From an uncultured Candidatus Poseidoniales archaeon (GTDB lineage: Archaea; Thermoplasmatota; Poseidoniia; Poseidoniales; Thalassarchaeaceae): DNA of 57,050 bases. The stretch is taken from assembly GCA_963990035.1 (NCBI GenBank), contig CAXDMJ010000005.1, positions 1 through 57,050 on the forward strand, given 5' to 3'. Position numbers and translations under genes: made by a program. Position 1 is the stretch's first letter, and each line of letters begins with the position of its first letter. Shown here piece by piece: positions 2,057-40,851 of the stretch. The notes under the pieces are model-generated. The model ran no database searches, had not been told where the DNA came from, and saw only the letters and a list, made by a program, of their open reading frames with translations.

Positions 2057-5000
2057 CTATTCCTCTTCACCAATTAGTTCTTCTATCTCTGATACGCTCA
2101 TAACCTCATTTAGTGATATTGTTTTGTCACTCAAAAAAGTATTTTCATCTTCGAGTAACTTTATTTGTTCCTCGCTTGTTCTCGTGTCTTCCTCTTTGAA
2201 ATCCATTAGTAAATCATCATCATCATCATTATTTTTTATAACAATATTTTCTTTATCTTCTTTGATTCTTTTTTTACTAATTTTTTGTTTTTGTTTTTCC
2301 TCACTGAATGGGTCATAATCAGGGTCGTCAAATGCATCATCCATTGATACTTTTCTTCTCGTTTGAGAAATATCTACAATTACTTCTTTCTTCTTTAGCA
2401 ATAATGCCATTCCAACAAGTAAAATCGTAATTAATAGAATTATGACTATACCTATAGGGCTGAGAATAAATCCAGATAATGAAAAAGGTATTTCTTGTAC
2501 CTTTATTTTCATTGTCATTGAATCTGTTTTATCACCATCATCTACAGTTAATTGTATTACTTTATCACCTGCATCATCGTATTTCCAAGATACTGTTTGT
2601 CCAGTGATATCTCTATCATTATTTTTATTGCCATCACCATCGCTATCTCTTGAAACATCCATATCCCAATAATATTTCATATTCTGCATGTCAAAATCGG
2701 AGTCAGTAGTGCCATTACCTGTAAGAATAATTTCATCGCCTGCCATTGGTTGAGATTCACTAATTGATAAACCAACATTTGGTTTCATATTTCTAACATC
2801 AATAGGTATCTCTATAGAAGCAATTTCACCATCATTATCAGTCACATGGAATCTTATTCTATCAGGCGCGGTATTTGAATCAGGCCATGAGTGTACTAAT
2901 TGATAAGATGCTACATCACAATCGTCATTTATTGTCCCCATATTATCTGAATTTGTATATGGGTCAAGATCATAACATGGAATAAGGCTCTGCATATCAT
3001 ATAATGTATCATCAACTATAATCGTCAATTCTATATTGTCATCTTCTTCAACTGGTAGTGGTTGAGAAAATGGACGAATAGTTGGTGGGAGATTATTTAC
3101 TTTGAACGGAACAGTCATTAAATCAGTACTTTCATCATTATTGTCAAATACTTGATAAGTTGCTATATGTTGTCCTTCTATGTTGTATGTATATACTATT
3201 GAACTAACAAGTCCTTCTTGTATATTTTGAACGTCTGGTTCATCTTCAGCATCTGGTTTCCATACATGCTGTAATGTACTCATATCGTTTTCAGAATCTT
3301 GAGCCCAACCTCTAATTGTCAATTGGTCTCCTTCATTTACATCATAAAGCCCGAATGAATTAGGGATAATTCTATTTCCATCAAAAAGAACCTCCCATTC
3401 CGGATCATATGGAGCAATATTAGTTACATCTATTGTGTATAACTCAGTAATTTCTTCTCCATCGTCATCCATTGCATTAACTTCTATGGTATATGGCCCC
3501 TCTTCGGTTGGTGTTACAGTACATTTAACGCCTAAAACACCTTGTTCACAAGGTGCATTCCAGATGATATCAACTGGAGCATCTGGATTTTGAGTATCTA
3601 AGTCAATTCTCTCAGTAATTTCAAATGTTACTGGAGTGAGTACTGGGCTGAATTCAGATTCTACAGATACTGTTATTTCTGGTGCTCTATTCAGTATTGT
3701 AATGTCACGACTTACTGAATCATAATCACTCTCTCCATCAGTTATTACCATATTAACTGTGAATATTCCATCATCATCCCATGTATATTCAAAAATACAA
3801 TCACTTTCTTGAGATGTCACAATATTTCCTGCTAAACTTTGTACTGAAAAGGTACACTCGAAACCTCCTCCATCTGGATCATATGAGTTGAGTCCATTAA
3901 AAGATACTTCATTTAGAGTCAATGATTCATCATACATTGTCAATAAAGCAATTGGTAATGATCCGATGAAAAGATTAAATTCACCTGCATTATTTATCAA
4001 ATCACCATCTTCTAAATCAATATTAAATTGAATACTAATCATTCCAAATGGCTGATTCGAAGGGACAACCCAAGATACCTCGACTCTTGATTCTTCCAGA
4101 CTCGACAAGGATGGAATACTTGTTTCTGTAACTGTTCCATCTGGTTCAGTTATCTGTAGAATTGATGGTGGTGATTCTCTTAATCCTTTATTTATAACTG
4201 GAATACTGAATGTCATCATATCATTTCTTATTCCTGTAAATCCTATGTTGTCATCTAAGGTGACAGTTGTGTTTAATCTTGTTCTTTCTACTGAAACACC
4301 TTCTTGATTTGCATATAAATCAATTTCATAAACCTCTGGATCAATTGTTATTGTCGATACGCCAATTGTCTTTGAAGTATCAATCCAAGCCAGAATGCCG
4401 TGACTTCCTAAATCTTCACAATTATTACAGAGTCCTTCAGAATTTGAATTATCCGCAGAATCTCCAGTATTAAATATGACATGTGCACTTCCATTAGATG
4501 CCGTAGTTAAAGTTTCTATTTCTCCATTAATCTCATATCTAAACTCTAATTGCTGATTTCCAATAGCGTTTCCATTATTATTTGTCACATTAATCCAAGC
4601 AGAGGTATCAATATTAATCGGTGATAAAGGAAATTCTACATCGATATTAATTATTTTTAGCCTACTAGATGCTTGATAAGATGATAATGAATGAACTGCA
4701 GTGAATCCCAAGCTTTCAACAGTTTCCATCTTTATATCTCCTCTAATAGCTGGACAAAACCATTTGTATCCCGTGTCATCTCCATCTCCATTTGTACTAG
4801 ATATATTGTATGATACAGCACAGCCACTATAACCAACTCCCGAAAATCCTTGACTTACTACTTCAAAATTTGAATTACTTTGCGACACACTATTTTCAGG
4901 TATATCTACGTAATCACTTTGGCCATCAAAAGTAGTAGTTGTAGTATAATCTTGACCCCATACCTCACCTACCGAGAGTGGGAAGTCATAGCCTTCAAGA

Positions 5001-36655: not shown

Positions 36656-37825
36656 ATGAGTAGTGAAGATGTGTTATTTACAATTACTGGTAAGAACCTA
36701 GATTCAGGATTAAGAGGAGTACCAGTAGGAACCTGCCAAACTTCATTTGTAGACCCTTATGAAGGTGTACATTATGTTGGTTATCCAGTTGAAGATTTAG
36801 TAAATATGGAAGAAGAAGATGTAATATTTTTGTTAATGAATAAACGTCTTCCTACGGAGGTTGAAGCTCAAGAGTTCCATGCAGAATTAACACAAAGAGG
36901 AGAAAATATACCTACGGGTGCTCTTCGTGTATTAGAATCATTAACTCCTGGTAGTGGTCACCCTATGGATTGGCTTTCAATTGGAATAATGGCACTTGGA
37001 GCCGCAGAAAACACTGGGGATACAAAAGCCGATGCAATGAATCTAATAGCTCGGATGCCCGAGTTAATGGCAAGGATTTTCCGTCTTAGGGCGGGTGAGA
37101 AGGATAAATTAAAACCTCGAAGACCAGGTTTAGGTTTGGTAGAGAATTTTGTTCATATGATGGGTTATGAAGGTCAACAAGCAAGAGATATTGAGAGGGT
37201 ATTGCGTTTCTTTTTCATACTTCATATGGATCATGGTGGAGGGAATTTGTCAACGTTTTCCGGTAAAGCAGTAGCATCTGGTTGGGCTTCTATTTATCCC
37301 TCAATTTCAAGTGCAATGAATGCTCTTTCAGGACCACTTCATGGCAGAGCAAATCAGGCATGTCTTGAGTTTGTACAAAGAATTGGAACATCTGATCATA
37401 AAGAAATTGAGAATTTCGTCCGTACTGAATTAGAAAATCGTCGTCCAATATTTGGTTTTGGTCATGGTGTTTTAAGAGCCGAAGATCCACGTGCTCGTTT
37501 ACTTATTGAACTAGGTGAAGAAATCTGTCCTGATGATGAGAATTTCAAGATAGTTAGAGCATTGAGAGAAGTTGTACCACCAATACTTAGTGAAATTCCT
37601 AAAATAAGTAATCCTTATCCTAATGTTGATATTGCTAGTGGCAGTCTTCTTCATTCAGTAGGTTTCACAATGCCTGAATACTATACTACCTTTTTTGGTT
37701 GGGCTCGTGTAGCTGGAATTAGTGCTCAAATATTAGATGAAAGGAATGCTAGAGATGGTCGAGGTACACCTATTTATAGACCGAAATATATTCCTAAAAA
37801 TCAACCTCTAAGAAGATTAGAATAA
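36656..37825 (+). CDS. gltA: Citrate synthase (eukaryote/Geobacter-type motifs)
   Basis: DHGGGN, GPLHGRANQ, GFGHGVLR.EDPR, YPNVD, RPKY. Confidence 0.92.
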   Translation: MSSEDVLFTITGKNLDSGLRGVPVGTCQTSFVDPYEGVHYVGYPVEDLVNMEEEDVIFLLMNKRLPTEVEAQEFHAELTQRGENIPTGALRVLESLTPGSGHPMDWLSIGIMALGAAENTGDTKADAMNLIARMPELMARIFRLRAGEKDKLKPRRPGLGLVENFVHMMGYEGQQARDIERVLRFFFILHMDHGGGNLSTFSGKAVASGWASIYPSISSAMNALSGPLHGRANQACLEFVQRIGTSDHKEIENFVRTELENRRPIFGFGHGVLRAEDPRARLLIELGEEICPDDENFKIVRALREVVPPILSEIPKISNPYPNVDIASGSLLHSVGFTMPEYYTTFFGWARVAGISAQILDERNARDGRGTPIYRPKYIPKNQPLRRLE

Positions 37826-38959
37826 TCACGATCCACCTTTGTGCGATTTCCCAGTGCCTCTATGGCCTATGATTCGTGAAACTTCCCAAGGTAAACTCGA
37901 TTCAGAAGTTTCATTTAATAGCATACTCATTTTTCTTTCCCATAACCATCTATTACTCCAATTTTCAATAAATTTTTTCCTTTCAGTATCAGACAGTTCA
38001 TGCCAAGGAGAAATCTCACGTCGCAATTCTGAGATTTTCGAAGCATGCTCCTCTCTAGGAGTTTCATCCAATTTTTTTCTTATTTCATCAGTCAAAGGTT
38101 GAGTTGCAGGTTTTGTCCACCGAGCATGACCAGTATCTAAAGTTACAAAGTTAGGCGATAAATCATCAGTCAGTGCTGTTAATCCTGCGTCTAGTAGTAA
38201 TCTTTCAGAATCAGATTTCGAGGGCCAAACATAAACTGGATAACCTTTCCTATATTTTGTCAATCGCTTTAATTTTTTACCTTCTAAACCCACTGTCCAG
38301 CCTATATTTATATTGCTTTCTATACCTCTTAGATACTGTAGCGAACAGGGAAGCATAGGGGAACCTTCTTGTCTTTGTTTATCCATTAATTTGGGTAATG
38401 AATTTGCTAAGAAAGAAGGTGCTGCAATAATTCTCTGTGTTGTCCAATTACCCCATGATCTAATATTCGGTCTTAATCTACTGAATTTAAGATTACTTTT
38501 TATTTTTTTAGATGCAGATATAAGTTTCGGGTCGAATGAATAGATTACAGTGCTACTATTACTTCGTTCAATTGGTTGTAATAAATCTTCTAATTCCTCA
38601 ATCATCTTAATCATATGTTGTTCTTTTTCTCTACCATTAAACCATCCTCCTGCCTTACCACTTGATGGATGTGGTGTTTTCAGTTCTATACAAGTGAACG
38701 CCCCTTCTTCTGTCCAACGACGAATGAAATCTTTATTTTCTAATAAATCATCTATCGGTTCTACATATTCTGGTAACTCATCAAGAGTCAAACATTCAGG
38801 ATAATCACCAAATTCTGTTTTTGAATCATGATGAAGGACAAGTCTCTTATCTTCAGTTAGTCGTAAATCTAGCTCAACTCCATCCGAATGTTGCATTCCA
38901 TAAACTAGAGCATCAACAGTATTTTCTCTTGGACGTACCCACTCTCCACTGTCCTGCAT
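37826..38959 (-). CDS. Glycerophosphodiester phosphodiesterase, circularly permuted
   Basis: N-terminus starts at RENT...DGVELDLRLTED..LVLHHD...IELK; IIGHRG lies in the last 15 residues. Confidence 0.85.
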   Translation of the reverse strand: MQDSGEWVRPRENTVDALVYGMQHSDGVELDLRLTEDKRLVLHHDSKTEFGDYPECLTLDELPEYVEPIDDLLENKDFIRRWTEEGAFTCIELKTPHPSSGKAGGWFNGREKEQHMIKMIEELEDLLQPIERSNSSTVIYSFDPKLISASKKIKSNLKFSRLRPNIRSWGNWTTQRIIAAPSFLANSLPKLMDKQRQEGSPMLPCSLQYLRGIESNINIGWTVGLEGKKLKRLTKYRKGYPVYVWPSKSDSERLLLDAGLTALTDDLSPNFVTLDTGHARWTKPATQPLTDEIRKKLDETPREEHASKISELRREISPWHELSDTERKKFIENWSNRWLWERKMSMLLNETSESSLPWEVSRIIGHRGTGKSHKGGS

Positions 38960-39063
38960 AACTATACCGTAGTGTTACTAATAATTAATTAAACGTTTTT
39001 TTCCAACATTCGTCCGCCCCAATGCTAAAGTGTTGAAAAGTGAGCCGGGATACAGGTATGTCC

Positions 39064-40851
39064 ATGTCAGACACAATTGAACTAGACCGAAAATCAGACC
39101 CGAAAGAAGTAAGAGGATATGCATTTTATGACTGGGCTAAATCAGCATTTGAAACAAGTGTGACAGTTGCAGTCCTTCCAGCATGGTATGCATATTTATT
39201 CCTTAAAGCAAATGGTTTGACTACAACTATTGGGTCAATGGAACTTACTGGTGATACTATCTGGGCACTTTCTGTTGCTGCTGCAACACTATTCGTTGCA
39301 ATTATTAGCCCCTCTTTAGGGGTTATTGCAGATAGGCGCATGATCAAAATGTGGTGGTTGAAAATCTTAACTTATGTGGGAGCAGGTTCTACTTTCCTGA
39401 TTGCTTTTGCACCTTTATTATCTTTTGACTATCAATGGATATGGTTGATGGTATTCTTTGTCCTTGCAAACGTAGGTCTGAATGGTGCTGGAGTTTTCTA
39501 TAACGCCTTGCTACCTCATATGGGTAAAGATGACGAAATGGATCGTATATCCAATCTCGCATTTGCTTATGGTTATCTAGGTGGAGGTCTTCTTTTGCTT
39601 GTACATCTGATAATGGTTATGACGCTAACAGGTGATTGGGTCATTCCTTTTGTCATGGCATCTTCTGGTGTTTGGTGGTATGCCTTTGCACTTATTACAT
39701 TCAAATTAGTCCCTGAACCTCATATCGAGAATGAAATGCCTCCTATGAGTTTTGGTGTATCTGCTCGTTTAGCCATAACTGAAATTCGAAAAACTTTAGG
39801 TCAAGTTAGTAGATTCCGAACTCTTTTCATCTATATGCTTGCATACTTCTTCTTCATAGATGGTATCAACAGTGTAACTGCTCTTGGAGGCGTGTTTGGT
39901 ACAACTGTTTTAGGAATTACTACAGTCGATCTTATCATCACAATTCTTGCTATTCAATTTGTAGCATGGCCATCTGCTTTGGCGTTTACCCGCTTAGCAA
40001 AAAGAGTAGGTACAAAATCTGCTCTAAATGTATCTCTAGTTGGATGGGTAGTTCTTTGTTTTGCAGCACTTTCATTTGCTCCTTTAGAGTTAGATGCACA
40101 CTCTGAATATGATGTGCAGATAGAATCTATCGATGGAGAATGGTTTTTCACTCCAAACGCAGATATACCTACAATAGCTATGGTTGAAGATGGTTCTGAA
40201 CAAGTTTGGGCAAAAGAAAATTTGCTCATGCTTAACATAGTACAATTAAATGATGATGTTAATGACGCTAATATTTATGAATGGTCAGGTTTTGATGATG
40301 ATGGTGAAGTAATTGCTATTTCTATGGGATCTCATGATTTGGAAACTATTGCTTCTCTATCGGACTCATTTGAAGATACTCGTTTTTCAATTAGTGCCAA
40401 AGAAACTTCAACTATGGTTGGAGTAGATCATCCAACTAACTTAGGTGATGGCAAAATTGATTTCATTCCGGAAACAGTACGTACTCTAGTTTGGGGTCCT
40501 CTTGGCTTGGGAGTTGGTATTCAATTCCTAATCCTGGGATGTTCAATGGGAACTCTCCTCGGTGGCTCCCAAGGTCTAGCTCGTAGCATGTTTGGACAAA
40601 TGGTTCCAGAAACACGAAGTGCCGAATTCTTTGGTTTCTTTGGTTTCTTTGGTAAGGTTGCTGCTTTTATCGGACCATTACTTTATGCAGGGATGACATA
40701 CTTATTCGATAGCCGTGTTGGTCTCCTTTCTATAGCAGTTTTAATCCTAATAGGTGCTCTCATGATGAGACTAGTTGATCTCGATGAAGGAATAGCTGAT
40801 GCACGGGCTGAAGATGCTCGTAACCGTGGTTTGAATTCAGATGATGAGTGA
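39064..40851 (+). CDS. MFS transporter, UMF1/Atg22-like, with extracytoplasmic insertion
   Basis: YAFYDWAKSAF, VFYNALLP, ISNLAFAYGYLGG, FFFIDGI, GGSQGLARS, EFFGF. Likely start ATG 39064. Confidence 0.88.
   Translation: MSDTIELDRKSDPKEVRGYAFYDWAKSAFETSVTVAVLPAWYAYLFLKANGLTTTIGSMELTGDTIWALSVAAATLFVAIISPSLGVIADRRMIKMWWLKILTYVGAGSTFLIAFAPLLSFDYQWIWLMVFFVLANVGLNGAGVFYNALLPHMGKDDEMDRISNLAFAYGYLGGGLLLLVHLIMVMTLTGDWVIPFVMASSGVWWYAFALITFKLVPEPHIENEMPPMSFGVSARLAITEIRKTLGQVSRFRTLFIYMLAYFFFIDGINSVTALGGVFGTTVLGITTVDLIITILAIQFVAWPSALAFTRLAKRVGTKSALNVSLVGWVVLCFAALSFAPLELDAHSEYDVQIESIDGEWFFTPNADIPTIAMVEDGSEQVWAKENLLMLNIVQLNDDVNDANIYEWSGFDDDGEVIAISMGSHDLETIASLSDSFEDTRFSISAKETSTMVGVDHPTNLGDGKIDFIPETVRTLVWGPLGLGVGIQFLILGCSMGTLLGGSQGLARSMFGQMVPETRSAEFFGFFGFFGKVAAFIGPLLYAGMTYLFDSRVGLLSIAVLILIGALMMRLVDLDEGIADARAEDARNRGLNSDDE
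40627..40653 (+). repeat. Perfect 9-bp tandem repeat (TTCTTTGGT)x3 encoding FFGFFGFFG
   Basis: Read directly; in frame within the MFS gene. Confidence 0.9.

Follow-up and report, generated by a model that had tools for sequence, protein, structure and literature searches.

The gene and its motif order

We studied one gene in a 57,050-nt stretch of DNA (hereafter, the window) from an uncultured Candidatus Poseidoniales archaeon (assembly GCA_963990035.1, contig CAXDMJ010000005.1, positions 1-57,050). The open reading frame (ORF) at 37826-38959 lies on the minus strand –as do all the motifs of its product located below– and is complete, with a TGA stop at 37826-37828. According to the ORF listing and the translation, it codes for a 377-aa protein of the glycerophosphodiester phosphodiesterase (GDPD) family. 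The N-terminus reads MQDSGEWVRPRENT, and E12, which opens the ENT motif, comes 11 residues after the start. The C-terminus reads SRIIGHRGTGKSHKGGS, followed by the TGA codon, and contains an IIGHRG motif that we recomputed to lie at exactly 37856-37873.

Along the chain, the motifs come in the order ENT, GVELDLRL (E29 and D31), LVLHHD (H44), CIELK (E92 and K94), GLTALTDDL (residues 259-267), a linker, and RIIGHRG. The ExD, HHD, ExK and strand-8 TD motifs stand in the canonical order, and HRG comes last. A preliminary description of this DNA had reported the start 11 residues before ENT, the same order of the internal motifs and the C-terminal IIGHRG at these positions; the ORF and its translation confirmed all of it.

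For the homologue set, we combined word-indexed searches with an exhaustive HMMER search and retrieved 366 proteins, 243 of them full-length (340-420 aa). Conservation was read from 88 aligned sequences that were left after removing redundancy at 80% identity; the most distant of them have ~31% identity to the window protein. The residues H44, E92, K94, P96, F142, P164, E252, G259, D265, R280, W319, R362, H366, R367, G368, and G370 were invariant (88/88), and E12, N13, E29, D31, and R33 were conserved in at least 92%.

GDPDs work with two histidines, an arginine and a lysine that hold the phosphate, and a Glu/Asp/Glu metal site. In our protein, the chain starts at ENT (E12-N13-T14; 38918-38926), within the loop that comes after beta-1 and its HRG in canonical enzymes; E12 was found in 81/88 sequences and N13 in 86/88. 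The ExD motif (E29-L-D31; 38867-38875), with the putative metal ligands on beta-2, aligned to the canonical ELD (E29 in 86/88, D31 in 87/88), and the predicted second catalytic histidine, in H44-D45 of HHD (38825-38830; H44 in 88/88), aligned to the canonical HHD or HD. The ExK motif (E92-L-K94; 38678-38686), with a further predicted metal ligand and the phosphate-binding lysine, aligned to the canonical EIK and is followed by a family-specific P96-H97-P98 (E92, K94 and P96 in 88/88). The last barrel strand, equivalent to beta-8 (G259-LTALT-D265; 38165-38185), aligned to the canonical GVDGIxTD, with G259 and D265 in 88/88 and a model strand at 261-264. Finally, R362-IIG-H366-R367-G368-T-G370 (37850-37876), 11 residues from the C-terminus, aligned to the canonical N-terminal xIAHRG; its R362, H366, R367, G368 and G370 were present in 88/88. 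This would be the relocated beta-1 strand with its catalytic His-Arg pair. Thus, the residues that define a GDPD by sequence, predicted catalytic residues and metal ligands alike, are all retained, and the opening His-Arg pair is fixed at the end of the chain instead. The alignment also bears out the earlier claim that all these ligands are kept.

The position of HRG is a property of the whole family and goes beyond chance. It stands within the last 25 residues in 242/243 full-length homologues (median distance to the end, 8 residues), and it was found in the first 50 residues in none of the 243; hence, there were no intermediates with HRG at both ends. In P0092, the sole exception among the 243, the tail is unrelated, apparently owing to a frameshift. 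Separately, a scan of loci flagged one upstream HRG (in L020), 5' of the start codon, that looks coincidental.

The gene is preceded on its 5' side by an 80-bp divergent intergenic spacer (38960-39039), with no upstream coding extension. In-frame TAG and TAA codons stand 6-7 codons 5' of the ATG, and the 540 nt before it are free of H[RK]G in all three frames. A protein identical to that of the window was found on 13 contigs, the longest of 272 kb, which rules out a local misassembly.

Evidence for a permuted barrel

At the sequence level, the Pfam GDPD profile (PF03009) matched residues 12-128, at profile positions 10-93 of 244, with 31.3 bits (cut-off of 23.6). When the last 17 residues were put first, the score rose to 38.2 bits and the match began at profile position 1 instead of 10, which is the gain that the preliminary description had expected from moving the tail to the front. 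Against solved GDPDs, the single sequence gave a weak match (2pz0, E = 0.0012), whereas the family profile matched 16 GDPD-type chains in the PDB, with 2pz0 at E = 2.6e-14. In databases, members of the family are named either 'glycerophosphodiester phosphodiesterase family protein' or 'hypothetical protein'.

We then compared the 88-sequence family profile to a profile of five canonical GDPDs (P0232, P0240, P0242, P0210, and P0252) using hhalign. The five came from the same homologue searches, and all of them begin with xIxHRG...ENT. In the native order, residues 8-267 aligned to template columns 15-218 of 231 (probability of 99.2%, 202 columns, score of 138), and the C-terminal EVSRIIGHRGT gave a separate mini-hit on template columns 3-13. 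When two copies of the family alignment were joined in tandem, a single block ran from residue 359 through the C-terminus and the junction up to residue 267, covering columns 3-218 with a score of 156.5. A single alignment that spans the junction is the classical signature of circular permutation. From these alignments, the new termini are placed in the loop between HRG and ENT.

Regarding family membership, the protein scores above the threshold of the hidden Markov model (HMM), adopts the GDPD fold in the model described below, and has the His-Arg pair of HRG, the metal ligands, the second histidine and the lysine. What it lacks is the co-linear order with HRG first, since HRG comes ~100 residues after beta-8, and this is the permutation itself. 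As for a circular permutant, the tandem query aligned in one block with better score and coverage, and the arrangement is inherited and under selection.

For the structure, we ran AlphaFold2 (AF2) on the monomer only, with the 88-sequence alignment. The predicted local distance difference test score (pLDDT) was 95.2 and the predicted template modelling score (pTM) was 0.93, with all five models reaching a pLDDT of at least 94.6. A run with 20 sequences gave a poor model (pLDDT of 62.6, below 50 in the second half) and was discarded. The strands of the model are 27-34, 40-42, 88-93, 137-141, 159-161, 203-206, 242-245, 261-264, and 363-366, and the pLDDT of residues 361-370 is ~98. Each of these nine strands has its counterpart in one of the nine conserved strand motifs of the canonical GDPD alignment (the eight of the barrel plus the HHD hairpin), which leaves 363-366 as the sole candidate for beta-1. 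When the model was compared to the PDB with Foldseek, the 23 best matches were all GDPDs; 1vd6 and 1v8e had target-normalised TM scores of 0.70-0.71, and 1o1z, 4oec, 2otd, 7e0v, 2pz0, and 3qvq were among the further GDPD matches. Structure prediction had also been proposed earlier as a check on whether IIGHRG completes the barrel: it returned a GDPD barrel with a confident beta strand at 363-366, and the place of this strand in the barrel is a deduction.

The linker (residues 268-360; 37880-38158) leads from beta-8 back to the position of beta-1. It was modelled with a pLDDT of 97-98 and four helices (291-299, 302-315, 324-337, and 344-350), in agreement with the ~100 mostly helical residues after strand 8 that had been described before. 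It contains a conserved R280-W281..P..T/S.P-L segment, then helices with the invariant W319 and W340, and the pair P357-W358. We rejected a known domain in this region, given that the linker had only noise-level matches to Pfam (TcdB_N, E = 0.23; DUF1289, E = 0.33). The spacing from D265 to H366 is 75-103 residues across the family, with a linker of ~95 residues in the window protein. In a Poseidoniales subgroup (P0125, P0309, P0314, P0336, P0339, P0349, and P0365; 347-352 aa), the linker has 75-78 residues instead of ~100; these proteins keep the C-terminal HRG, so the linker is tolerant to changes in length.

Altogether, we consider it very probable that this gene is a natural circular permutant of the GDPD (PF03009) TIM barrel. 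This is what the preliminary description had proposed, with new termini in the beta1-alpha1 loop, and both the tandem-profile alignment and the gain in the Pfam score support it.

Distribution, related forms and gene neighbourhood

A full-length match (profile positions 3-381 of 382) was found in 196/201 Poseidoniales genomes, almost always as a single copy. These included 59/61 high-quality genomes, and all the matches together covered 24/24 genera and three families. No match at E <= 1e-12 was found in 197 other Thermoplasmatota genomes, which included the sister lineage in the same class. The homologues came from sources named Candidatus Poseidoniales, Thalassarchaeaceae and Thalassarchaeum, and those of Marine Group II all have the same motif order, as had been suggested for checking. 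In Poseidoniales, the permuted GDPD belongs to the core genes, is present as a single copy and is inherited vertically. As a side observation, two otherwise full-length copies have an in-frame stop (TAG in G062:C1:394334-395470 and TGA in G121:C5:199641-200744) and could be either pseudogenes or sequencing errors.

The exhaustive search also retrieved two short permuted proteins, P0203 (273 aa) and P0221 (280 aa), that start with M..(E/K)PNT..DGVEFD.R and end with ..I(I/A)(A/I)HRG.GT... Scanning the GTDB species (a collection of 185,579 species), we found four full-length short relatives of 271-273 aa (loci L004-L007), three of them from genomes recorded as Heimdallarchaeota and the fourth from an 'uncultured archaeon'. 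These genes, at ~4001-4819 of their loci, encode proteins that start with M.L.PNT and end with IIAHRGTGxKG. Only ~15 residues separate the last barrel strand from the HRG strand in this Heimdall form, with no helical linker, and the gene neighbours are a deoxyhypusine synthase, a short-chain dehydrogenase and an HxlR regulator. In the same scan, HRG was upstream of ENT in every bacterial match (Bacilli, Chloroflexota, Actinomycetota, and others) as well as in Thermococcus and Desulfurococcales, and it was at the tail in every Poseidoniales match.

The Heimdall form has the same termini as the Marine Group II form and probably the same origin. When profiles were compared with hhalign, Marine Group II against Heimdall scored 214.6, Marine Group II against canonical GDPDs 138, and Heimdall against canonical GDPDs 101. 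In a maximum-likelihood tree calculated from 'de-permuted' sequences (16 from Marine Group II, 5 from Heimdall, and 26 canonical), Marine Group II and Heimdall fell together on the same side of a branch of length 0.46 (ultrafast bootstrap of 96; Shimodaira-Hasegawa-like approximate likelihood ratio test of 85). Since the canonical sample was small and selected by motif, we lean only somewhat towards a single origin of both permuted forms.

Concerning the neighbourhood, the permuted GDPD lies between a divergent ATG22/UMF1-type transporter of the major facilitator superfamily (MFS) and a convergent citrate synthase, which is followed by a 4HBT thioesterase, an aminotransferase and a metallo-beta-lactamase-fold protein. 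The citrate synthase gene (36656-37825, plus strand) has a stop that abuts that of the GDPD gene, and this order is kept in homologous loci. The two stops (ending at 37825 and 37826, respectively) are directly adjacent with zero spacer (37823-37828), leaving no space for a terminator between the genes; in the homologous locus L085, both genes overlap by 4 nt. The MFS gene (39040-40851, plus strand) encodes 603 aa and matches PF11700 at 5.4e-48. Its product has ~140 Asp/Glu-rich residues (~345-490) unmatched by Pfam between two matched halves (21-343 and 492-579).

The same neighbourhood recurs, including the divergent MFS gene, at loci where the GDPD is only 34% and 53% identical. A third homologous locus retains the citrate synthase, and its contig stops short of where the MFS gene would lie. 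Plainly unrelated genes are equally conserved, so this is lineage-wide synteny and no evidence of an operon. The preliminary description had suggested that the MFS transporter could supply the GDPD with its substrate; as a hypothesis, this draws on the conserved synteny alone. Yeast Git1 is a precedent for an MFS importer of glycerophosphodiesters.

In the genome of the window there is a second GDPD-like ORF (G000:C82; positions 1252-1827 of locus L001, minus strand). It encodes 191 aa in the canonical order, starting with MNNSGHRLG..LENT, and thus with HRLG instead of HRG. PF03009 matches it at positions 2-109 with 35.3 bits, and its length does not suffice for a full barrel. It adjoins a 359-aa ORF with a sequence that resembles a solute-binding protein.

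We also looked at the genes for the lipid backbone. A GpsA-type NAD-dependent glycerol-3-phosphate (G3P) dehydrogenase domain was found in the genome of the window (G000:C7:41055-41486, plus strand) and in 10/12 relatives, and the glycerol-1-phosphate (G1P) dehydrogenase-type PF13685 was above the cut-off in 0/13 genomes (that of the window and the 12 relatives). This result independently reproduces the published pattern of Marine Group II archaea, which are described as being without G1P dehydrogenase (PMC6962369). In the four Heimdall genomes that carry the short form, PF13685 was present at 112-123 bits and GpsA (PF07479) was absent. With opposite gene patterns in Heimdall and Marine Group II, the permutation does not track the stereochemistry of glycerol phosphate. 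A link of the permuted GDPD to 'mixed-membrane' genomics was considered and down-weighted on the same grounds, the Heimdall pattern being opposite to that of Poseidoniales.

Interpretation and comparison with known systems

In the permuted GDPD that we propose, the chain would start in the loop after the canonical beta-1, just before ENT, and beta-2 to beta-8 would follow in order (residues 8-267). A helical linker of ~95 residues would then carry the chain back to the N-terminal side of the barrel, where the terminal RIIGHRG strand would fill the beta-1 slot between beta-8 and beta-2. From this terminal strand, His366 would act as general acid/base and Arg367 as phosphate binder, and E29, D31 and E92 (as metal ligands), H44 and K94 would occupy their usual places. 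With the active-site residues in these places, the protein should be an active, metal-dependent cytosolic phosphodiesterase, which would cleave a glycerophosphodiester or a lysolipid head group into glycerol phosphate and an alcohol. No signal peptide, hydrophobic N-terminus or membrane segment was found in the 377-aa protein; lacking a hydrophobic N-terminus, it is probably cytosolic, like UgpQ. Judging from the conserved residues, it is likely that the enzyme is active, metal-dependent and directed to head groups of the glycerophosphodiester type. For the substrate, we infer either soluble diesters (in scavenging of phosphorus and carbon) or lysolipids (in head-group turnover).

Some observations weigh against the permuted barrel. 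Pfam covers only positions 10-93 of the 244 of the profile, and the second half of the barrel is seen just by profile-profile and fold comparison. The location of strand 363-366 between beta-8 and beta-2 is deduced from homology, the number of strands and the high confidence of the model in this region. A swap of this strand between subunits is possible, the AF2 model being monomer-only, and the tree relies on few canonical sequences chosen by a shared motif. Other explanations were weighed as well. That the odd motif order is an artefact of a missed start, a shifted frame, a split gene or a wrong assembly, with the C-terminal HRG opening a second, truncated GDPD, has next to no probability, and nothing beyond the odd order itself speaks for it. 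The preliminary description had already discarded a missed start and a frameshift, and we rejected these and a misassembly on the in-frame TAG and TAA, the lack of HRG in any upstream frame within 540 nt, and the identical architecture, with an invariant HRG tail, in 242/243 homologues of independent assemblies and in 196/201 genomes. Besides, since the GDPD stop abuts the convergent citrate synthase gene, nothing can be encoded past the C-terminus. It is highly improbable that the HRG at the C-terminus is a conserved motif of another kind (e.g., a binding or sorting signal), unrelated to the canonical one, on a barrel that is seven-stranded or catalytically dead: the Pfam match over just the first third of the model would fit this idea, but the tail aligns to the canonical beta-1 and HRG including the preceding hydrophobic strand, it forms a confident beta strand in the model, and the other catalytic residues are strictly conserved, which is unexpected for a dead enzyme. 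Another option accepts the permutation and has the C-terminal HRG strand complete the barrel of a partner, so that the active sites would be shared within an obligate dimer or oligomer with swapped strands. The strand is at the tip of a helical arm of 75-103 residues, a geometry that could permit swapping, and the monomer-only run leaves room for it. Still, we find such an arrangement improbable, because the monomer model is confident both overall (pTM of 0.93) and at 361-370 (pLDDT of ~98), and the Heimdall form joins beta-8 to the HRG strand by ~15 residues, favouring closure within the chain.

Regarding function, the barrel and the permutation may be real and the enzyme one that acts on lipids, removing head groups in the way of a lysophospholipase D or a phospholipase C, with the Trp-rich linker as an interfacial element or a lid. 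The only NCBIfam match is a weak one to a lysophosphatidylglycerol phospholipase D (NF053857, E = 0.0064), but it reached 15.8 bits against a cut-off of 450. Structures of lysoplasmalogen-specific phospholipase D (7ym0 and 7ymq) are among the fold matches, yet the best matches by both fold and sequence are soluble GDPDs. The linker has invariant or near-invariant tryptophans (W281, W319, W340, and W358), which may just pack it on the barrel, given the pLDDT of 97-98 in the linker. The near-universal single copy suggests housekeeping over accessory scavenging, and the protein has no membrane segment. On balance, we consider a lipid-acting enzyme rather unlikely. A broader and doubtful scenario is that the permuted GDPD arose once and became common to Heimdallarchaeota and Poseidoniales by descent or transfer. 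In Poseidoniales, it would have acquired the Trp-rich helical arm and taken on a universal housekeeping role, turning over the head groups of membrane lipids as a phosphodiesterase of lysolipids or ether lipids. As a variant of this, the terminal catalytic strand may dock reversibly, or swap between subunits, giving a switchable active site. If the housekeeping role in lipid turnover were true, the enzyme would offer direct biochemical access to the membrane lipids of Marine Group II archaea.

Returning to the permuted GDPD as such, it matters in several respects. A catalytic strand at the extreme C-terminus has been kept by selection across an order of very abundant surface-ocean archaea. For protein evolution and design, this is a natural example with hundreds of sequences, and its two linker lengths (~15 and 75-103 aa) allow studying how a barrel is rewired. 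For genome annotation, standard HMMs detect no more than the opening third of the domain; some records are left as 'hypothetical', and automated checks of catalytic residues would wrongly flag a permuted GDPD as being without the HRG histidine. The membrane lipids of Marine Group II are unresolved (PMC6962369), and a near-universal single-copy gene in such a lineage makes substrate specificity (G1P- versus G3P-based diesters) worth testing.

In a full-text literature search, neither a permuted GDPD nor a permuted phospholipase C-like phosphodiesterase barrel was found described; one of the papers considered, on toxin domains, lists canonical GDPD domains only (PMC3482391). The enzyme family, the fold and the chemistry are those of GDPDs; the topology, which makes this a new variant, and the lineage-specific helical arm set the protein apart.

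Canonical GDPDs (PF03009, of the UgpQ/GlpQ type; e.g., 2pz0 of T. tengcongensis, 1vd6 of T. thermophilus, 1o1z of T. maritima, and 4oec of T. kodakarensis) have the same TIM-barrel fold as the permuted protein (Foldseek probability of 1.0) and the same set of motifs (HRG, ENT, ExD, HD, ExK, and the TD of beta-8). Presumably, they also share with it the same metal-dependent chemistry with two histidines. They differ in that canonical enzymes run from beta-1 to beta-8, whereas the permuted form runs from beta-2 to beta-8, then the linker, and then beta-1. In place of helix alpha-8, the permuted form has the helical linker of 75-103 residues, and it adds the family-specific PHP after ExK and RW..P.T.PL after beta-8. 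The lysophospholipases D with a GDPD fold (7ym0/7ymq and NF053857) have a GDPD-type barrel too, with a fold match at E of ~1e-5 and a weak sequence match. However, their strand order is canonical, and the similarity is so far under the family cut-off that membership is unsupported; they serve as a lead to the substrate class only.

TIM barrels have rarely undergone circular permutation in nature. Among the other known cases are transaldolase, when compared to class I aldolases, and the GH70 glucansucrases, when compared to the GH13 amylases. They represent the same kind of event, with the barrel kept and the termini moved, in other superfamilies and for other chemistry. Unlike those cases, in the permuted GDPD only beta-1 was moved, the strand that bears two of the catalytic residues.

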